IMG/VR virus record: IMGVR_UViG_2713896773_000024
Strand: one strand, 5' to 3'
Origin: a virus
Taxonomy: Duplodnaviria > Heunggongvirae > Uroviricota > Caudoviricetes
Length of the DNA: 22,080 nucleotides
Positions 1 through 8,095 of this stretch are shown here, in pieces; the first letter of the stretch is position 1; every line of letters starts with the position of its first letter. The notes under the pieces were generated by a model. That model was not told the origin of the DNA, searched no databases, and was given only the letters and a program-made list of their open reading frames with translations. The translations under genes were made by a program, and so were the position numbers.

Positions 1-981
1 TCACACCGCCAGCCCGCCGCCGAGAGGGTTTAACGTTACTGCATGTTGCAGGTAATCGGGGGCAAGGTGAGCATAAACCATCGTCTGTTGTATGCTGGCG
101 TGCCCCAGAATTTGCTGTAACGCAATAATGTTCCCTCCATTCATCATGAACCAGCTTGCGAAAGTATGCCGAAGCACGTGTGTGGCCTGCCCACGTGGTA
201 AATCGGGCTTAACCTGTTTGAGTCGTTCACAGAAGTTTTCATAGTCAACTTTGAACAGTGGCCCAGTGTCGCTGGTCTTGATCTCTTTCTCCAGTTCTTC
301 GGATATCGGAACGGTGCGCTTTTTTCCGTTTTTGGTCTTAAGGAACGTCACGCGCCCGTGATTAACCTGCTCACCTCGCAGCGTGCTACCTTCGCCCCAG
401 CGTGCGCCAGTGCTGAGGCATAGCAGTGCTACACGTCGATCGTCGCCGGTCAGAGTATCCAGCAATCTGCTGATCTCTGATTTTGCTAGATAGGTCATAG
501 CTGGCGGCGCTTCTTTCAGTGGTTCCAGACCCTTGCAGGGGTTTTCCTTCCTGAACTCTTCCAGTTTTATCAACGTGCTGAACATCCCGGATAAGCGGTA
601 AATATCCCGGTTGATCGTTGCTGCGCTGATACCGTCTTCCAGCCGTTGGCCTCGGTGCTGAGCAATCATTCGCTTGTTCAGTCGGTTAACGGCTGGATCG
701 CCCAGTGCCCTGATTGTTTTATTCAGGTGCCGCTTTTCAATCTTGCCATTTTCCTGAGTCTGTCCGTACAGTAGCCACCAGGTATCTAACAACTCGCTTA
801 AGGTGCGGCGGTCAACGCTCGCGCCCAGCCATTCTTTTTTGTCGGCGTTGGCTAATACATAACGCTCAAAAAGAACCGCCTCTTGTTTCTTCTCAAATCG
901 CCTGCGGATACGTTTTCCGTTACGTCCGCGCGGCCATACGTCTACTTCATATTGACCACCTTCGAGCTTCTTAATCGACAT
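1..981 (-). CDS. int: Tyrosine recombinase / phage integrase, P2 Int-like, complete (stop codon at window positions 1-3)
   Basis: 326-aa ORF; N-terminus MSIKKLEGGQYEVDV...GRNGKRIRRRF, catalytic region LCLSTGARWGE, HVLRHTFAS (H-x-x-R) and QTMVYAHL (Tyr), closely matching P2 Int as I recall it. Confidence 0.93.
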   Translation of the reverse strand: MSIKKLEGGQYEVDVWPRGRNGKRIRRRFEKKQEAVLFERYVLANADKKEWLGASVDRRTLSELLDTWWLLYGQTQENGKIEKRHLNKTIRALGDPAVNRLNKRMIAQHRGQRLEDGISAATINRDIYRLSGMFSTLIKLEEFRKENPCKGLEPLKEAPPAMTYLAKSEISRLLDTLTGDDRRVALLCLSTGARWGEGSTLRGEQVNHGRVTFLKTKNGKKRTVPISEELEKEIKTSDTGPLFKVDYENFCERLKQVKPDLPRGQATHVLRHTFASWFMMNGGNIIALQQILGHASIQQTMVYAHLAPDYLQHAVTLNPLGGGLAV

Positions 982-1050: not shown

Positions 1051-1371
1051 TTAACCAGTTTGTGTCTCTGAGCGGTCTGATCCAGTTGACTCTGGCCCAA
1101 TGTGTGCGAGGGCCGGTGCGATTTGACCAGCTTGAGGGGCGGTCTTATCAGTCATTAGCCAGAGCGTATATTTTGCAAAACGGGGGTGTTGTGTGATCTT
1201 CAACAAAATTTCACTACCAACTCCTTCTCTTCTCCCCATCTCGTAATGCTTTTGAGTACCTGCCGGAATACCTGTCAATTCAAAGAATTGAGTTCTGGAT
1301 AGCCCTTCAGCATCCCTAATTGCTCGAATTTTTTCCCCAATCCCGCTTGACTGGGTCTCATTTGATACCAT
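1051..1371 (-). CDS. C: Immunity repressor, P2 C-type (small HTH protein); start moved to internal ATG with strong RBS
   Basis: HTH-like segment LSRTQFFELTGIPAGTQKHYEMGRR and C-terminal KYTLWLMTD...GQIAPALAH resembling P2 C as I recall it; ATG at 1369-1371 (minus) preceded by AAGGAG 6 nt upstream; lies between int and cox. Confidence 0.72.
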   Translation of the reverse strand: MVSNETQSSGIGEKIRAIRDAEGLSRTQFFELTGIPAGTQKHYEMGRREGVGSEILLKITQHPRFAKYTLWLMTDKTAPQAGQIAPALAHIGPESTGSDRSETQTG

Positions 1372-1405
1372 ATCCTTCTCCTTAGTGGGTCTCAATTGAT
1401 ACCAT
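1352..1405. promoter_or_regulatory. Two 20-bp direct repeats (TGGGTCTCATTTGATACCAT at 1352-1371, TGGGTCTCAATTGATACCAT at 1386-1405), candidate repressor operators; first copy overlaps the C start codon
   Basis: 19/20 identity read directly from the sequence, 34 bp apart; P2 C is known to bind directly repeated operators in the switch region. Confidence 0.5.
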
Positions 1406-1434
1406 TGCAACGAAAAGGCAACCGCCAATATAAG
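1405..1434 (+). promoter_or_regulatory. Candidate sigma70 promoter firing rightward (TTGCAA, 17-18 bp spacer, ATATAA/TATAAG), -35 overlapping repeat copy 2
   Basis: Hexamers read from sequence only; no experimental support. Confidence 0.3.
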
Positions 1435-1824: not shown

Positions 1825-1920
1825 AAAGATCTCCTTTCTGGTTGTGTGGAAACTCCAGAATACCACGCGCCGGGCGTGGCTAAAAATCCCGGCATATCTT
1901 CAATGAGAGGTGATAACGCT

Positions 1921-2202
1921 ATGACAGACAAAGAGTTAGAGGGGTTCATTGAAGTGCGTCATGCCGTTGACGCGGTTCCATACCCTAAATTTGCCGAGTT
2001 AATCGGTAAGAAGCCCGCCACGGTTAAGAGCATGATTGAAGACGGTAAGTTGCCGATCATCCCGTGGAAGAACCCGGAAAGCCTGGGCGCCCGTGCTGAG
2101 AACTGGATCTATATTCCTGAGTTCAACCGCGCAATGCGTGACGCCTACTACAACCGTCCGAGAGAGCAGCGCGACGCTTGGTTGCTGTGGATCGGTCTTT
2201 GA
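1921..2202 (+). CDS. cox: Cox-like excisionase / early-switch DNA-binding protein
   Basis: 93-aa product; ...PYPKFAELIGKKPATVKSMIEDGKLPII...ENWIYIPEFN...RDAWLLWIGL resembles P2 Cox as I recall it (C-terminal GWLMWLGL); GAGG upstream of ATG 1921; divergent from C. Confidence 0.72.
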   Translation: MTDKELEGFIEVRHAVDAVPYPKFAELIGKKPATVKSMIEDGKLPIIPWKNPESLGARAENWIYIPEFNRAMRDAYYNRPREQRDAWLLWIGL

Positions 2203-2212
2203 GGTTATCGCG

Positions 2213-2416
2213 ATGAGCCAGAAAACAGCCAACCACGAAAACCGGGTGCGTGAATGCAACAACATTCTGGACACCCATTTAAAAGATATGCAAACGGGCT
2301 TCATGATTCGCACCAATAGCGGCGAATTTATGATCAGGGATAAAAAGCTGATTAAGAAAATAACCAAAGACGTGGCCCGCCATGTTGATGGTGAATTGCT
2401 TAAATTGGGAATGTGA
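2213..2416 (+). CDS. Hypothetical 67-aa early protein
   Basis: ATG 2213 with GAGG 8 nt upstream; starts 10 nt after the cox stop; no recognisable motif. Confidence 0.5.
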   Translation: MSQKTANHENRVRECNNILDTHLKDMQTGFMIRTNSGEFMIRDKKLIKKITKDVARHVDGELLKLGM

Positions 2417-2634
2417 GGGGGGCTTTTGTGGCTGTGCAATTAATACAGTTAAGTCGTCATTCATATTTATATCGTGGCTTCACGATTCAAAAGTGCCCGC
2501 GTAATCCATTTACGTTTAAGCACTCTTATCGTATTTCCAGCAATGGCGATTATTACGGGCGTGACTTTGCTTTAGCGGAAGCCATGCGCACGGTTGATCA
2601 GATGTATAAGCAAGGGGGCAGTAATGCACGATGA
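2413..2634 (+). CDS. Hypothetical 73-aa protein (GTG start overlapping previous stop, ATGTGA)
   Basis: ORF in AT-rich island; start codon uncertain (GTG 2413 or downstream). Confidence 0.35.
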   Translation: MRGAFVAVQLIQLSRHSYLYRGFTIQKCPRNPFTFKHSYRISSNGDYYGRDFALAEAMRTVDQMYKQGGSNAR

Positions 2635-2854
2635 AGGCCCATCACTGGCAAGCCTGCTTAAGCACGGGTGCCAGTTTACACACTTCAAAAACTCACGCGG
2701 CTGGCTGGAAACACCAGACGGGCAATTCTTTAAACCTGAGCCTAGCAAGGTTCAATTTATTAAGGGAATGAGTAAGCCCTTTGTTTATACGAAGAAGATA
2801 AACAAAGGATTGCTTTTTAACCTTGTTAATTCTTTGAGAGATTTAATCGGCTAA
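2624..2854 (+). CDS. Hypothetical 76-aa protein
   Basis: ATG 2624 preceded by AGGGGG; overlaps upstream ORF by 11 nt; AT-rich codon usage unlike the phage backbone. Confidence 0.45.
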   Translation: MHDEGPSLASLLKHGCQFTHFKNSRGWLETPDGQFFKPEPSKVQFIKGMSKPFVYTKKINKGLLFNLVNSLRDLIG

Positions 2855-2897
2855 CAACGTCAGTTAAATAGTAATTAAAAAACAGTCTTCACTGTCG

Positions 2898-2913
2898 TCA
2901 CTTAATTAAGTGA
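2898..2913. promoter_or_regulatory. Perfect 16-bp palindrome TCACTTAATTAAGTGA about 35 bp upstream of the TerB-like gene; candidate operator
   Basis: Read directly; sits in a 94-bp AT-rich non-coding spacer (2855-2948). Confidence 0.35.
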
Positions 2914-2948
2914 TGGCGCTTTCACTCATCCTAAAAAGGATAAATAGC

Positions 2949-3383
2949 ATGTTTAATAAACTGTTTGGAAAAAAAGTAGCAGCGGCAAAAGTTGAACTTA
3001 AGAAAGTGGAAAATCGCGATCTTATGGAAGCTATTGTCGGCGGTTGTCTTTTGGTATCTGCCGCCGATGGCGAGATCGAAAAAGAAGAAACCAGCAAGCT
3101 GGATCAGCTTATCCGCTCTAACCCGCGCCTTGCGCATTTCGGCAATGAAATTACATCCACCATCAACCGCTATACGGAACAGCTTGAAGCTGGCTTCCGC
3201 GTTGGCCGCATGAACATTTTGCGCGAAATCGACGACATCAAAAACGATCCGAAAGAAGCCGAAGAAGTCTTCGTCAACATGCTGACTATCGCCGAAGCGG
3301 ACGGCCAGATCGAACCAGAAGAACAGAAGGTGCTGGAAGAGGTCGGGCGCCGTCTGGGGCTGCGTGTTGAGGATTATCTCTGA
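2949..3383 (+). CDS. TerB-family (tellurite-resistance TerB-like) domain protein, 144 aa
   Basis: Two repeats of the TerB-type acidic motif: AIVGGCLLVSAADGEIEKEE and MLTIAEADGQIEPEEQKVLEEVGRRLGL; overall pattern similar to E. coli TerB as I recall it; ATG 2949 with AAGGA 9 nt upstream. Confidence 0.7.
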   Translation: MFNKLFGKKVAAAKVELKKVENRDLMEAIVGGCLLVSAADGEIEKEETSKLDQLIRSNPRLAHFGNEITSTINRYTEQLEAGFRVGRMNILREIDDIKNDPKEAEEVFVNMLTIAEADGQIEPEEQKVLEEVGRRLGLRVEDYL

Positions 3384-3565
3384 TGCTGCGCGTGCTGGAT
3401 TCACTACGTCCGGCGCTGGCCCTGCTGTTGGCCTTCATGGTCGTAGCAGTGGATTTCACCAGCTACCTGCTTTCGGTGATTGGCGACGCCTTCTTCGTTG
3501 GCGCTCTTCTTCTCCTTGTCTGGCCTGCCATCAAGTCAGCTAACCAATCAGCGGATCACCAGTAA
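3383..3565 (+). CDS. Small membrane protein, 60 aa, two predicted TM helices; translationally coupled to the TerB-like gene (TGATG overlap)
   Basis: Hydrophobic stretches ALALLLAFMVVAV and FFVGALLLLVW; start overlaps upstream stop by 1 nt. Confidence 0.6.
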   Translation: MLRVLDSLRPALALLLAFMVVAVDFTSYLLSVIGDAFFVGALLLLVWPAIKSANQSADHQ

Positions 3566-3568
3566 CAG

Positions 3569-3595
3569 ATTGCCGGGGAAACCCGGCAATTTCTG
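3569..3595 (+). terminator. Candidate intrinsic terminator / stem-loop (ATTGCCGGG-GAAA-CCCGGCAAT followed by TTTCT)
   Basis: Perfect 9-bp stem with GAAA loop immediately after the membrane-protein stop; U-tract is short, so may be partial. Confidence 0.45.
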
Positions 3596-3607
3596 AGGCT
3601 TCGAATC

Positions 3608-3820
3608 ATGACTAAACGCGATCAATATAACTTCATCCTGCACGTTCTCTTACCTGCTGTTGAGCGTGAAGGGCTGACGATTAAAACCCGCCGCGATGGT
3701 GAGTTAACCCTTTCTTCTGACGATCCCTCTGTTTCCTGCTTTATCGACGACATGCGCCAGCGCCTTACCACGGCGTTGCAGCGTCCGGCTGTTCCATCTT
3801 CCCCTTACGGAGTCCTGTAA
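3608..3820 (+). CDS. Hypothetical 70-aa protein
   Basis: ATG 3608 with GAGG upstream; no recognisable motif. Confidence 0.55.
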   Translation: MTKRDQYNFILHVLLPAVEREGLTIKTRRDGELTLSSDDPSVSCFIDDMRQRLTTALQRPAVPSSPYGVL

Positions 3821-3821
3821 A

Positions 3822-4793
3822 ATGATCCGCCCGTTCATCAAATGGGCAGGGGGTAAAACCCGTGTCCTTCCTGACCTGCTGCCGCACCTTCCTAAAGCCG
3901 ACTGCCTGATCGAACCGTTCGTAGGCGGCGCATCGGTATTTCTGGCGACTGAGTACCGCCGCTATGTGCTGGCTGATATCAACCCGGATCTTATTAACCT
4001 TTATCGGAAAGTCACCCGTTACCCGGACTTAGTGATCGATGCGGCCCGCGAACTGTTCAACAGCAAGAACAGCCCGCAGGGGTACAACGAAGTCCGCGCC
4101 GCGTTCAATAAGCAGGTATGTACGGTAAAAAGCTGTGGGTTGCGTTATGGCGTCGAAATGGCGCGCATCATGCGTGCTGCTCAATTCCTGTATCTGAACC
4201 GCCACGGTTATAACGGCTTATGCCGTTACAGCCGTAAGACCGGCTTTAACGTGCCGTTTGGCAAGTATAAGAGCGTCTACTTTCCTGAAAATGAAATCCG
4301 CCTGTTTGCCGAAAAGGCCAACGATACAAAGGCAATATTTCTTTGCGCGCCGTTCCAGCGTTCTCTACAGGTCGTCACGGGTGGCGATGTTCTCGTTTAC
4401 TGCGATCCGCCTTACCTGCCTGAAAGCAAAACAGCCGATTTTACCCAATACCACACCGAACCATTCACGGAAGACAACCACCGCCAGTTAGTCCAGGCAC
4501 TGCTGGAAGTTAACCGTAAGCATGGCGTGAAGGTTGTCATTTCCAACAGCGACACCGAAGCCACCCGCGCGATTTATCAGCCTTTCAAGATGCACGAAAT
4601 CAGCGTGCAACGTTCCGTCAGCACTGACAAAGACAACCGCCAGAAGGCCAAAGAAGTGATCGGCGTGCTGCCTGTCTGCGACTGCTGCGGGCGTTACGGC
4701 GGCGGTTGCCCTGATTGTGGCGCCGTGATGGGTGATGCGACTTACAACGCGATGGTTGCGGCAGGCACGTTTGACGATATGGAGGCGTTTTAA
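3822..4793 (+). CDS. dam: DNA adenine methyltransferase, Dam family, with about 45-aa Cys-rich C-terminal extension
   Basis: KWAGGK, EPFVGGASVF (motif I), DPPY (motif IV), LYLNRHGYNGLCRYS, ISNSD; clearly collinear with E. coli Dam as I recall it; extra tail ...PVCDCCGRYGGGCPDCG.... Confidence 0.9.
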   Translation: MIRPFIKWAGGKTRVLPDLLPHLPKADCLIEPFVGGASVFLATEYRRYVLADINPDLINLYRKVTRYPDLVIDAARELFNSKNSPQGYNEVRAAFNKQVCTVKSCGLRYGVEMARIMRAAQFLYLNRHGYNGLCRYSRKTGFNVPFGKYKSVYFPENEIRLFAEKANDTKAIFLCAPFQRSLQVVTGGDVLVYCDPPYLPESKTADFTQYHTEPFTEDNHRQLVQALLEVNRKHGVKVVISNSDTEATRAIYQPFKMHEISVQRSVSTDKDNRQKAKEVIGVLPVCDCCGRYGGGCPDCGAVMGDATYNAMVAAGTFDDMEAF

Positions 4794-4972
4794 TGAATCT
4801 TGTAGACGCCTGGATCGTTGAAATCATAAGCGTGAGTCGTGGCGAGATTGTGCCGTATTGGTTGGTTGAGGCGAAAGTAACAGCTTATGGAAGGGAGTCA
4901 ATAACCACAATTCTGAAGAAATCAGAAGAGGAAGCCAAAGCCGTTAAAGTAGGGGATGTAGTTCAAATATGA
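4793..4972 (+). CDS. Hypothetical 59-aa protein (below the ORF-track size cutoff), coupled to both neighbours (TAATG upstream, ATGA downstream)
   Basis: Uninterrupted frame MNLVDAWIVEIISVSRGEIVPYWLVEAKVTAYGRESITTILKKSEEEAKAVKVGDVVQI; GGAGG 7 nt upstream of ATG 4793. Confidence 0.5.
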   Translation: MNLVDAWIVEIISVSRGEIVPYWLVEAKVTAYGRESITTILKKSEEEAKAVKVGDVVQI

Positions 4973-7326
4973 CCACGGCAACCCGTGGCCGTCGCGCCCC
5001 TTCTCCACCTCCACCGTATCCGGGTAGCACTGACAATGCTATCCCTTACGCTTATGGCGGGAACAAACCATACCAGCCGATTGGCGTTGATGTAGCGCCG
5101 GGGCTGGATGGTTTCGACTATCTCATGCCGGACGGCACGCGTAAGCATATTGCGTTCAGTGAACTGGTAGCGGAGGACGAAAAGCCGGAACGCAGTAAGC
5201 TGCTGCGTCGCCGTCTGGCTTCTCTTCCGCAATATGTCCGCCGCCACTTTGCAGCGAAGCTTGATGCGCTGGATGTGAAAGACCGCAAAGCGGCAGATCA
5301 CTGGCTGCTTAACACCTTTGAGCGCCACGTATTAACGCGTATTGATAGCGTGAACAGTGTTTACCAGCCTGATACTGTGATGCCCGGCATTCTGCTGCCA
5401 ATTCGCGATCAGCTTTTCCGTATGCTCTGGGCAGGGAAAAAAGAGTTAAAAAGACTGGCTTATACGCTTGCCGATATCTTTACGAGCGAGTTTATACGCG
5501 AGTCCGATCACCAGTTGGTGCGCACCGGCGATCCTGAGTTCGCGGCGCTTTCTGGCTATGGCCGTATTGCATCGCTGGCAGTGCATCTGAAAACGCCGAT
5601 CCCCGGTTGGACAGCTTATTGCAATGAAGAACTTGAAGCGGAGGACGCGTTACGCGCAGTTCTCCGTCTTGAGTCACCGCAGTGGTGGTTAAACCGCCTG
5701 CGCCGTATCCATGCCCGGTGGCGTGAGCATTTGATGATCGCAGCGGGATACGTCCAGAAAAAATCCTCCCCATACAGTAGCGCCCCGTGCCTTACGGAAT
5801 GGCTGGCCCAGAAAAAAGCTAACCGTGAATACCTCAAGGCTATGGAACTGGAAGACCAGGACACGGGCGAGCGCATTTCGCTGATCGATAAAGTCGCCGG
5901 CAGTGTTGCCAATCCGGCCAACCGTCGCCGCGAACTCATGACGAGAATGCGCGGATTTGAAGATCTGGCGAAGCTGGAAGGGCTGGCCGGTGACTTCTAC
6001 ACGCTGACAGCGCCTTCCCGCTATCACGCTATGCAGCATAACGGGCGCCGTAATAACAAATACTGTGGCGCGTCGCCGCGTGAGACACAGCAATATCTTT
6101 GCAAAGTCTGGGCGAGAACCCGCGCCGCATGGAAGAGAAAAGGGATCCGCGTCTTTGGTTTCCGCGTGGTCGAACCGCACCACGATGCAACGCCACACTG
6201 GCATTTGCTTCTTTTTATGCGCCCGGAATGCGTCGAGCAGGCGCGCGAAATCTTCCGTAAATATGCCCTGAAAGAAGACGGCAACGAACCGGGAGCGCAG
6301 GAAAACCGCTTTCAGGTCGTGCCGATCGACGATGCCCACGGCAGCGCAACTGGCTACATAGCGAAATACATTTCGAAGAATATCGACGGCTTCGCGCTGG
6401 ATGGTGAGAAGGACGACGAAACCGGGGAAGACCTGAAAGAAATGTCACTCCGCGTTAGCGCGTGGGCATCGCGCTGGGCTATTCGCCAGTTTCAGCAAAT
6501 CGGCGGTGCGCCGGTCACGGTATATCGCGAACTTCGCCGCCTGGGCGATCGCGAACTGGTGTTACACCCTGAACTGGAAACCGCCCGGCAGGCCGCTAAC
6601 GGTGGCGAATGGGATAACTACGTATTAGCCCAGGGTGGCCCGTTGGTTGAGCGCGATAAGCTGCGCATCCGTCTGAATTATGAAACCACTGAAAACGGTA
6701 ACGCCTACGGCGATAACGTCCAGCGAATCACTGGTATTTACTGCCCGATTACGGGCAATGACTCTTTGATCTTCACCCGCACCACTCAATACAAAATCGT
6801 GCCGAAGCGCCAGAGCGCTGACGGTGTGGCCGTTGACGTTGGTTTTTCAGGCGGCAACGCCGCCCCTCGGAGTTCTGTCAATAACTGTACGCGGGATCCC
6901 GCGACAGGTGCTGACGGTCTTGAACATGCCGATCACGAAGTGGGCGAGACGGTGAATTTTGATGCTCTTTCACGGCAGGAAAAGCGGGAACTGGCACAGA
7001 GGCTAAGTGACGATGTGCGAAGTAAGCGGAAAAAACGGCCACCGGAACGGGAAGACGGGGCCGGGATATCCGTGAAAGAGCAGCAGATCAGTGAACTGCT
7101 GGCGCTGCGTGGGATTGATGCCAGCGCCGGAATGGTCAGATCGATGATGGCCGGTGCGTCAGTGGCGTGCGGCGATCTTGTTATGACAGTGCAGGATGGG
7201 CGGCTGGTATCGCGCAACCGCGCCGCGTCGGGGCTGGATAAGCTGCCGTCGCAGGTGATGGCGGCGAAGCAACAGACAAATAGTCTTATTAACCGAATGA
7301 AAAAAGCCTTTAACGGTGCGTCATAA
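4969..7326 (+). CDS. A: Rolling-circle replication initiation endonuclease, P2 A-like
   Basis: 785 aa; HUH-type motif PHWHLLLF and paired tyrosines GYIAKYISK (Y-x3-Y) typical of the phiX174 gpA / P2 A superfamily; position after early genes and before cos. Confidence 0.9.
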   Translation: MTTATRGRRAPSPPPPYPGSTDNAIPYAYGGNKPYQPIGVDVAPGLDGFDYLMPDGTRKHIAFSELVAEDEKPERSKLLRRRLASLPQYVRRHFAAKLDALDVKDRKAADHWLLNTFERHVLTRIDSVNSVYQPDTVMPGILLPIRDQLFRMLWAGKKELKRLAYTLADIFTSEFIRESDHQLVRTGDPEFAALSGYGRIASLAVHLKTPIPGWTAYCNEELEAEDALRAVLRLESPQWWLNRLRRIHARWREHLMIAAGYVQKKSSPYSSAPCLTEWLAQKKANREYLKAMELEDQDTGERISLIDKVAGSVANPANRRRELMTRMRGFEDLAKLEGLAGDFYTLTAPSRYHAMQHNGRRNNKYCGASPRETQQYLCKVWARTRAAWKRKGIRVFGFRVVEPHHDATPHWHLLLFMRPECVEQAREIFRKYALKEDGNEPGAQENRFQVVPIDDAHGSATGYIAKYISKNIDGFALDGEKDDETGEDLKEMSLRVSAWASRWAIRQFQQIGGAPVTVYRELRRLGDRELVLHPELETARQAANGGEWDNYVLAQGGPLVERDKLRIRLNYETTENGNAYGDNVQRITGIYCPITGNDSLIFTRTTQYKIVPKRQSADGVAVDVGFSGGNAAPRSSVNNCTRDPATGADGLEHADHEVGETVNFDALSRQEKRELAQRLSDDVRSKRKKRPPEREDGAGISVKEQQISELLALRGIDASAGMVRSMMAGASVACGDLVMTVQDGRLVSRNRAASGLDKLPSQVMAAKQQTNSLINRMKKAFNGAS
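6865..6881 (+). other. Candidate origin nick site inside gene A (CCTCGGAGTTCTGTCAA)
   Basis: Resembles the P2-type ori motif I recall (CCTCGGAGTCCTGTCAA-like) and lies in the 3-prime third of A where P2 ori is located; recollection not verified. Confidence 0.35.
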
Positions 7327-7378
7327 CAGCGTGCCGGGGCTTCGCTTATTCATTTTCAGAAGAAACAGGAGTGACAGC

Positions 7379-8095
7379 ATGAGCAAAATTACCAGAGAAC
7401 GCGCAGCAAAAATTGCAGCAGGCGGCGGATATAACTTTGATGAGGTGGAGGAGCTGGCGCGTATCGCGCTGGCATCGCTCGAAGCGGAGGAGTCAGGGCG
7501 AAATCCCGTGCTGGCCTATGCAGACAGTTACCGCGATATGGCTAAGCAGGGTGTTGAATCTATTCCTGTATGGAGCGTAATTACCGATCTGGAAAGAAAT
7601 ATCGCCCCGCTATACTCCGCCACGCCAGCGCCGGTAGTTCCGGCAGAGCTTCATCCTGATACGCTGAAACTGGTGACCGACTTCAGCTCCGCCCTGGCTG
7701 AGAAGTTGTACAAGGCTCAATTAAAATATGGCTATGACGCGGACTGGAAACAAGATGGTTGGCCAAGCCAATGCCAGGCAGACTTTCAACAGCATATAGC
7801 TAAGGGAGACCCCCGGGATGTTGCCGCTTACTGTGCATTTATGTGGTATCACGGCTGGAAAACTGAGCCAGCGCCGGTATCGCTGCCGGACGAGCAACAT
7901 AGCGAACGCTTCAACTGGACACTTGGGCAGTGGGCTGAACATGTTGGGGGTCATTACCAGGGAAATGATCCGGCAAACTATTACGAGTTCGGCTCATTCA
8001 TGGCGGTCGCTGCAATGCTGTGCCAATTCGGCACCGTTCAGCAAAAAATTGGATGGAACGCCTGCCGCGCCGCCATGGTTAACGCAGGCCAGTGA
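7379..8095 (+). CDS. Hypothetical 238-aa protein in the accessory slot between A and cos
   Basis: ATG 7379 with AGGAG 7 nt upstream; acidic N-terminal part, Trp/His/Tyr/Cys-rich C-terminal half; no catalytic motif recognised. Confidence 0.7.
   Translation: MSKITRERAAKIAAGGGYNFDEVEELARIALASLEAEESGRNPVLAYADSYRDMAKQGVESIPVWSVITDLERNIAPLYSATPAPVVPAELHPDTLKLVTDFSSALAEKLYKAQLKYGYDADWKQDGWPSQCQADFQQHIAKGDPRDVAAYCAFMWYHGWKTEPAPVSLPDEQHSERFNWTLGQWAEHVGGHYQGNDPANYYEFGSFMAVAAMLCQFGTVQQKIGWNACRAAMVNAGQ

Follow-up and report, generated by a model that had tools for sequence, protein, structure and literature searches.

Two small overlapping genes in the early region of a P2/186-like (Peduoviridae) prophage of Escherichia coli, one coding for a 144-residue protein resembling TerB and the other for a 60-residue hydrophobic mini-protein, raise the question of whether they belong to the replication machinery of the phage, to a defence unit or to a module of another kind. 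The pair is contained in the region 2855-3595 of a DNA stretch of 22,080 nucleotides (IMG/VR virus record IMGVR_UViG_2713896773_000024), which represents the left arm of the prophage and is called the window hereafter. An earlier reading, made without database searches (the sequence-only reading), had described the pair as an autonomous cassette, possibly acting in exclusion, abortive infection or membrane stress, and had left room for a role similar to that of the P2 replication gene B; all the sequence features which it listed were found at their places. The analysis described here showed that the cassette is the tciA–tciB module of phages, in a copy carried by a P2/186-like prophage, and that RefSeq and PHROGs have names for both of its proteins. 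As to its role, it is interpreted, with a probability of roughly 55%, as an inner-membrane accessory module of the lytic phase, which would adjust the physiology of the infected cell; most of the weight is placed on the terms lytic-phase, accessory and membrane, and far less on any physiological target.

The elements of the cassette are listed below. The first gene and its product are indicated as terB and TerB throughout, the second as tciB and TciB.

2855-3595, plus strand: cassette region under study
2894-2917, plus strand: predicted leader hairpin H1, with a 10-bp stem including G·U pairs and the palindrome 2898-2913 as its core
2928-2941, plus strand: predicted small hairpin H2, AUCCU-AAAA-AGGAU, occluding the Shine-Dalgarno site of terB
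about 2933-3590, plus strand: inferred inserted segment, containing the Shine-Dalgarno site, terB, tciB and the 3' GNRA hairpin
2949-3383, plus strand: tciA-like gene coding for the 144-residue TerB family protein (ATG at 2949, TGA at 3383)
3383-3565, plus strand: tciB-like gene coding for the 60-residue DUF3927 mini-protein, its start overlapping the terB stop
3569-3590, plus strand: 3' stem-loop closing the cassette, ATTGCCGGG-GAAA-CCCGGCAAT, with a 9-bp GC-rich stem and a GAAA tetraloop

Identity of the two proteins

The 144-residue protein is a genuine member of the TerB family. The Pfam model PF05099 (TerB) matches it with a score of 54 bits (cutoff 24.4) over residues 27-143 of 144, and PHROGs assigns it to phrog_632 (4.9e-62). 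A profile built from 10 homologues matches the solved structure of Klebsiella pneumoniae TerB (2jxu_A) with E=9.3e-15, residues 16-142 aligning onto 22-149, and also matches 2ou3 at 1e-4. The two acidic motifs on which the assignment had originally been based are present, SAADGEIEKEE at residues 37-47 and AEADGQIEPEEQ at residues 115-126; both follow the pattern D-G-x-I-x-x-x-E, and their residues D40, G41, E47, D118, G119 and E125 show little or no variation in alignments of 10 and 30 sequences. The protein has a net charge of -8. The model obtained with AlphaFold2 is all-helical and made up of six helices, with a predicted local distance difference test score (pLDDT) of 91.4. A Foldseek comparison of this model against the PDB returned nothing at E<=0.001, and probability, template modelling score (TM-score) and the profile match were used instead; by these measures the closest fold is the TerB-like 2h5n, with a probability of 1.0 and a TM-score of about 0.5. 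The NCBIfam scan produced only matches below threshold, to DjlA and YmfL. In RefSeq an identical protein (WP_000482341.1) is named 'tellurite resistance TerB family protein'. The ratio of nonsynonymous to synonymous substitution rates (dN/dS) ranges between 0.02 and 0.07, with saturated dS, and the gene is under very strong purifying selection.

The second open reading frame (ORF), spanning positions 3383-3565, starts with an ATG which shares one base with the terB stop codon, in the sequence cTGATG, an overlap already reported by the sequence-only reading. Its product is matched by the Pfam model PF13064 (DUF3927) with 30.8 bits, against a cutoff of 25, and by phrog_1470, annotated as 'TciB-like', at 2e-19; an identical protein is recorded in RefSeq as 'DUF3927 family protein' (WP_000946669.1), a family on which essentially no literature was found. 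The core VDFTSYLLS..D is invariant in the TciB alignment, as are D24 and D35, which are placed 11 positions apart inside a hydrophobic stretch of 41 residues. Values of dN/dS between 0.06 and 0.38 indicate that purifying selection is weaker than on TerB. On the basis of Pfam scores above the cutoffs and of dN/dS, both ORFs are real genes.

A tblastn search of the phage collection with the 60-residue protein gave no match, probably because of the low-complexity filter and of the short hydrophobic sequence, and relatives of TciB were collected by profile and pattern searches in its place. When the pattern matches in genome contigs were compared with the TciB alignment, 2 of 78 were confirmed, so that the non-viral distribution of the protein is poorly sampled.

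Pairing and distribution across phages

In enterobacterial phages the pairing of the two genes is obligate. A DUF3927 ORF is located at the TerB stop, or overlaps it, in 80 of the 80 IMG/VR viral loci found through TerB, which have a TerB at least 86% identical and P2-like or P1-like backbones; conversely, TerB is found directly upstream in all 42 loci found through TciB, for a total of 122 out of 122 surveyed enterobacterial loci. The pair occurs well outside P2-like phages, as it spans P2-like, P1-like, lambdoid, N4-like and jumbo phages, a TciB-like gene following TerB in the N4-like Salmonella phage FSL SP-058, in the 240-kb Erwinia phage Huxley and in Pantoea phage LIET2. N4-like phages (Schitoviridae) and 240-kb jumbo phages are taken as virulent. 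The overlap of stop and start codons takes the form TGATG in the window, TAATG in P7 and GTGA in JLK-2012. The association of TerB with a small membrane protein, noticed by the sequence-only reading, is thus borne out, its identity as the named tciA–tciB pair of P1 having been missed. In Klebsiella phage 1 LV-2017 an unannotated tciB of 51 residues (L102, 1563-1718; DUF3927, 56 bits) overlaps the stop of the annotated TciA.

The cassette is found in different genomic contexts: it follows the genes cox to fil in P2-like phages, belongs to the C1-repressed ban operon in P1, and lies downstream of Q and of a terminator in lambdoid phages, the order in JLK-2012 being Q, tRNAs, terminator, tciA and tciB. 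It always forms part of lytic operons, controlled by a repressor or an antiterminator, and at least three temperate backbones carry it in this way. In JLK-2012 the pair is bracketed, downstream of Q, by two strong terminator-like hairpins (L005, 2344-2363 and 3356-3374), and would be transcribed only under Q antitermination. Phage tRNA genes adjoin the pair in P1 (L003, 2056-3716), in JLK-2012 (L005, 2099-2332) and in Huxley (L098, 526-998); the position may correspond to a shared hotspot of accessory genes, or be a coincidence.

Phages and prophages of Pseudomonas carry a TerB 65-76% identical to the enterobacterial one, but its partner, joined to it through a GTGA overlap, is another small protein, phrog_27356, which has a single transmembrane (TM) segment and the motif C-x-W-Y-G-Y-Q-T-[ED]-R...G-C-M-V...G-W-x-P. 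The corresponding loci are L006 (1932-2153), L011 (5441-5644) and L101 (1578-1793); in phage AF the ORF is unannotated. Such a level of identity between enterobacterial and Pseudomonas proteins suggests a conserved host target, and could be accounted for by a decoy function in counter-defence, in which the phage TerB would mimic host TerB domains (Ter, Shango, Bunzi, DjlA) and blind membrane-linked immunity or stress signalling. The presence of the pair in phages taken as virulent and its placement for expression from lytic operons agree with this explanation, which is nevertheless purely inferential, finds no match among known anti-defence families and, as simple mimicry, leaves the obligate membrane partner unexplained; it is regarded as very improbable.

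The alleles of the two genes are not inherited strictly together. Comparison of the loci L105, L137, L140, L145 and L146 with L002, L003 and the window shows a TciB of the window type (65-72% identity) beside a TerB of the P1 type (32-35%), and a TerB of the P7 type (91%) beside a TciB only 43% identical to that of the window. Recombination at the terB/tciB boundary seems to be frequent and tolerated.

These data bear on the possibility that TciB is a membrane toxin, similar to a holin or viroporin or to GhoT, or else a division inhibitor acting next to Fil, and that TerB, as its regulator, would restrain or time it. Gene order and stop/start overlap are kept in every lineage, in the style of antitoxin–toxin pairs, and the two invariant aspartates D24 and D35 lie within the hydrophobic stretch of TciB. 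The genomic surroundings are suggestive as well: the cassette directly follows fil, the P1 operon also includes a dicF-like region, and the words 'inhibition of cell division' are part of the name which the P1 authors gave by homology. A holin and a lysozyme are however already encoded by the phage; TerB is far more conserved than TciB, the reverse of what is expected from a dedicated neutraliser of a variable toxin; and the shuffling of alleles between the two genes is tolerated. Taken together, these points make a toxin–regulator pair distinctly unlikely, and an accessory membrane module of the lytic phase is preferred.

Optional insertion in the early operon

The position of the cassette was evaluated relative to the neighbouring genes, which are ordered as follows.

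1-981, minus strand: integrase
1051-1428, minus strand: helix-turn-helix repressor
1846-2202, plus strand: Cox/Apl
2413-2634, plus strand: DUF4761
2594-2854, plus strand: fil, cell-division inhibitor of the 186 Fil family, directly upstream of the cassette (PF10893, 76.5 bits; phrog_816)
3608-3820, plus strand: p70, backbone gene of 70 residues, directly after fil if the cassette is absent (phrog_21140)
3822-4793, plus strand: Dam methylase
4793-4972, plus strand: gene of 59 residues
4969-7326, plus strand: replication protein A

The pair is an optional insertion and is not part of the backbone. Two close relatives, Salmonella phage SEN5 and the prophage of E. coli 730V1, the latter covering 88% of the window at 97% identity, have p70 directly after fil and no cassette. 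Among complete E. coli genomes, 17 occupied and 13 empty sites were counted; P2-like backbone sequence was found in 1,942 genomes.

Comparison of empty and occupied sites defined the borders of the inserted segment. The alignment between the spacer of the empty site and the fil–terB leader runs across the 3' half of a palindrome described below and the sequence which follows it, ...ACTCAT(C/T)CT; past the end of the alignment, the empty site continues into the ribosome-binding site of p70, and the window into AAAAAGGATAAATAGC-ATG, the start of terB. In 730V1 (L104) and SEN5 (L001) the empty junction reads ...ACTCATTCT joined to TTTTTTGAGG, followed by the ATG of p70. In the window, the left occupied junction joins ...ACTCATCCT to AAAAAGG, followed by terB and tciB, and the right one joins the end of the hairpin, CCCGGCAAT, to TTCTGAGG and the ATG of p70. 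From this alignment, the inserted block is therefore inferred to extend from about 2933 to 3590, for a size of about 660 bp; at the level of BLAST matches, the boundaries are 2815-3604.

At its 3' end the block is closed, at 3569-3590, by the GC-rich hairpin with a GAAA loop which had been noticed earlier. Its folding z-score is -3.65, and its stem covaries among relatives, where the two arms read TTGCCGGG/CCCGGCAA, GGCCGGG/CCCGGCC or GCACCGG/CCGGTGC and the tetraloop is GAAA, GCAA, GAGA or UUCG. The hairpin was also considered as an intrinsic terminator, which is not supported, the U-tract being missing and the terminator scan giving no call.

In P2-like prophages of Pectobacterium, the pair is bracketed by 47-bp direct repeats, 96% identical to each other (L007, 4925-4971 and 5616-5662), lying 691 bp apart and each coming after a GC-rich hairpin. 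These repeats may be the footprint of an insertion or a repeated intergenic element.

The optional nature of the cassette weighs on its possible involvement in replication. The sequence-only reading had considered a divergent accessory protein like P2 B, an idea based on the location of the pair, ahead of gene A in the early operon, and on the absence of any B-sized gene from the window. BLASTP comparison with a PF26815 RepB protein gave only E=3.8 and no Pfam RepB match was detected. P2-like prophages of Pectobacterium contain TerB and DUF3927 together with a bona fide PF26815 RepB. Moreover, SEN5 and near-identical prophages do without the pair, phage 186 has neither B nor the pair, and P1-like, lambdoid, N4-like and jumbo phages, whose modes of replication are different, have the pair as well. 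The likelihood of a B-like role is accordingly put at practically nil, and the idea was abandoned.

Leader hairpins and search for a promoter

The spacer between fil and terB (2855-2948) is 94 bp long, with a GC content of about 0.33, and includes the perfect 16-bp palindrome TCACTTAATTAAGTGA at 2898-2913, both as previously described. Allowing up to 3 mismatches, 0.02 matches to the palindrome are expected by chance in the window; the only other match found there has 3 mismatches and is located inside fil (2752-2767), and no second copy is present in the immunity region.

At the RNA level, the palindrome would fold into the hairpin H1, in which G·U pairs extend the stem beyond what is palindromic in DNA. 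The predicted helix is paired in all cells of the comparison across 13 distinct leaders; two pairs are changed on both sides (G-C to U-A and C-G to U-A), single changes are of the wobble type, and the loop consists of 3 or 4 nucleotides. SEN5 and 730V1, which lack the cassette, have a homologous hairpin, although their folds do not stand out statistically (z of about -0.7 to -1.0). Because an equivalent hairpin precedes p70 in relatives devoid of the cassette, the palindrome belongs to the backbone, as the core of a conserved RNA hairpin, and is not part of the cassette. A protein operator was the other candidate considered for the palindrome; the G·U-extended stem, the varying loop length and the compensatory changes led to its rejection.

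The second hairpin, H2, is a weak helix of 4-5 bp, in which a U-A pair becomes C-G in six relatives (ACCC...GGGU); at empty sites an analogous hairpin occludes the Shine-Dalgarno site before p70. This covariation is suggestive, as it comes from few, related sequences. In this P2-like lineage a conserved hairpin and then a small one come after fil (window 2894-2941; L104 1762-1815; L001 3292-3345), the second one occluding the Shine-Dalgarno site of the next gene, which is terB if the cassette is present and p70 if it is absent. Together they could serve to control translation or RNA stability in the early operon. Scanning the region 2500-3900 against Rfam produced only a chance snoRNA match (E=0.14).

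No sigma-70-like site was detected by a consensus scan of the spacer 2855-2948, nor upstream of terB in P7 or JLK-2012. Since no promoter-like site was found upstream, the cassette is not considered an independent transcription unit. The notion of an autonomous module consequently holds as far as the optional, non-backbone insertion is concerned; it does not hold for the spacer and palindrome as parts of the module, nor for transcription on its own.

The mode of expression is of importance for a role in defence of the lysogen by exclusion or abortive infection, with TerB sensing membrane stress and the mini-protein blocking entry or killing the cell. This hypothesis, put forward by the sequence-only reading, is favoured by the occurrence of TerB domains in the Shango and Bunzi systems and by the link of ter operons with phage and colicin resistance; the variable presence of the pair also recalls defence cargo. 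The PADLOC models, applied to the two proteins and to those of four neighbouring genes, produced no significant match: TerB showed only weak matches to the candidate system PDC-S48 (E=0.003) and to PtuA (0.04), TciB and the neighbours had none, and no Shango or Bunzi model was matched. No helicase, ATPase or other effector partner accompanies the pair, no promoter was detected, and the host operons are lytic and silent in lysogens. Furthermore, homologous pairs are found in N4-like and jumbo phages, in which, if these are virulent, there is no lysogen to protect. Defence of the lysogen is for these reasons judged unlikely. A variant of the hypothesis, exclusion operating within the lytic cycle in the manner of T4 Imm and Sp, overlaps with the lytic-phase accessory role preferred here.

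Proposed role of the module

According to the preferred interpretation, a promoter-less cassette of about 660 bp, inserted in the leader of the gene following fil, would be transcribed together with the repressor-controlled early lytic operon. Translational coupling would yield TerB and the mini-protein in a fixed stoichiometry, the predicted products being an acidic, all-helical cytoplasmic protein with the TerB fold and an inner-membrane protein of 60 residues. The latter may tether TerB, or act as its partner, at the cytoplasmic face of the inner membrane, in parallel with TerB and TerC of the ter operons or with the TerB domain of the membrane-anchored DjlA. During lytic growth, the complex might in this way alter the membrane or cation physiology of the host cell, a dispensable function of host takeover or protection, rather than one in replication or in a defence expressed by the lysogen.

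Several observations weigh against this interpretation. The tciABC genes of P1 have no plaque phenotype. The shuffling of TerB and TciB alleles argues against a tightly co-evolving interface, and in Vibrio phage D505 TerB is present without an adjacent small TM partner. Topology signals for TciB, in which the sequence-only reading had predicted two TM helices, disagree, as its hydropathy profile has two maxima, at residues 10-24 and 36-48 approximately, while the AlphaFold2 model is a single uninterrupted helix spanning residues 2-59 (pLDDT 89.5). Finally, the promoter scan was a simple consensus match, which a weak or non-sigma-70 promoter could escape. Two apparent fusions, P0064 (PF05099 and PF13064) and P0166 (TciB at 126-174), were discarded as frameshifted or chimeric gene calls and lend no support to a contact between the proteins.

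In a wider perspective, TerB with a co-translated mini-membrane protein could form a pan-phage lytic module, extending from temperate phages of the P1, P2 and lambda types to N4-like and jumbo phages, with an interchangeable partner, DUF3927 in enterobacterial phages and phrog_27356 in those of Pseudomonas. Its role would concern conflicts among phages or between phage and host, for instance the exclusion of superinfecting genomes or the neutralisation of membrane-acting effectors of abortive infection. This generalisation is tentative and, at present, rather doubtful; if true, the pair would be the smallest natural TerB system, and the simplest handle on the role of the TerB domain.

The significance of the finding is limited, since RefSeq and PHROGs have names for both genes and the P1 genome record describes the pair by homology. 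To our knowledge, no role has been established for the TerB domain, although work on tellurite-resistance operons goes back to the 1990s or earlier. Given its two genes within about 660 bp, natural isogenic controls with an empty site, strong selection and a strict, tiny partner, the cassette offers a convenient experimental entry point. The case also corrects a likely misreading, as evidence is needed before TerB in a prophage is interpreted as a sign of defence or of tellurite resistance.

Genomic surroundings

The prophage of E. coli EC09 is 99.4% identical to the window, and adjoins the cpxRAP locus. The integration junction (L004, 105-2823) lies directly beside cpxP, cpxR and cpxA, which belong to the envelope-stress regulon, and recurs in a metagenomic relative of Klebsiella type (L015). 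The cassette adjoins fil in the Fil-carrying P2-like loci examined; Fil was not matched at the Pectobacterium-type loci, nor at L096 and L136.

The Dam-type methylase (3822-4793) has a Cys-rich C-terminal portion of about 40 residues (CDCCGRYGGGCPDCG), with weak PHROG matches to 'exonuclease' families; in EC09 the methylase gene is broken into pseudogene fragments. Replication gene A is separated from the portal gene by an ORF of 259 residues (7316-8095), for which PADLOC gave no match and whose EC09 counterpart is annotated as a truncated pseudogene. Rousset et al. 2022 are reported to have described defence cargo at this position in P2-like phages.

Comparison with known systems

TerB of the terZABCDE operon (K. 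pneumoniae, PDB 2JXU) belongs to the same Pfam family as the window protein, with which it shares a near full-length alignment, the all-helical fold and the twin acidic D-G...E motifs. It partners the membrane protein TerC, having been recovered as a TerC interaction partner (PMC11003894), and the window terB likewise lies beside a gene for a membrane protein. In the ter operon, however, the partner is the multi-pass TerC and the setting a stress-resistance island, as opposed to a 60-residue DUF3927 protein in a phage lytic operon; TerC, TerD, TerZ, TerA and TerE genes were found neither among the window ORFs nor in the RefSeq annotation of the near-identical prophage. The link of ter operons to phage and colicin resistance is reported in the literature (PMC9603915) and in the annotation of the P1 record.

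In the validated anti-phage systems Shango and Bunzi the TerB domain is thought to act at the membrane, as proposed for the window protein. Shango includes a helicase/ATPase partner and Bunzi a TM-fused TerB with a lipid-binding domain, whereas the window pair contains neither. In DjlA the TerB-like domain adjoins the membrane helix of the protein (bioRxiv 2024.08.29.610257). The DjlA equivalog model and DUF533 (YebE-type) match the second TerB repeat of the window protein weakly, with scores far under the family cutoffs (24 vs 162 bits and 23 vs 29.6 bits, respectively). DjlA, which has a J domain, and DUF533/YebE-type proteins anchor the TerB-like domain to the inner membrane in cis; the window TerB has no J domain, and its anchoring, if any, would occur in trans.

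With morons the cassette shares the nature of an add-on block bounded by hairpins; unlike in classical morons, a promoter was not found and the 3' hairpin has no U-tract. In phage 186 the slot after fil, occupied here by the cassette, holds dhr, a non-essential, host-directed gene unrelated in sequence to the cassette, followed by the stem-loop tR1, which according to the 186 record belongs to a group of terminators subject to anti-termination in early lytic transcription.

The tciA–tciB genes of P1, P7 and D6 (Punavirus) correspond to the window pair in families, order and stop/start overlap. The window TerB is 91% identical to TciA of P7, of D6 and of one P1 record, and only about 33% to the canonical P1 allele; TciB of P7 is only 43% identical to that of the window. 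In P1 and P7, tciB is followed by tciC, coding for a 35-residue protein with one TM segment, all within the C1-repressed ban operon. The window has the hairpin and then p70 in this place, with no phrog_23152-like ORF after tciB, and tciC is missing from the lambdoid version too. The neighbouring genes, fil and p70 in the window as against tRNAs and ban in P1, the backbone and the flanking RNA hairpins also differ. In P1, tciA, tciB and tciC are non-essential by CRISPR interference (PMC10695390), and the tci genes are called variable or moron-like in two genomic papers (PMC9603915, PMC6799933); no functional test of tciAB was found in the literature. The module itself is known, and what is added here is its member in P2/186-like prophages.

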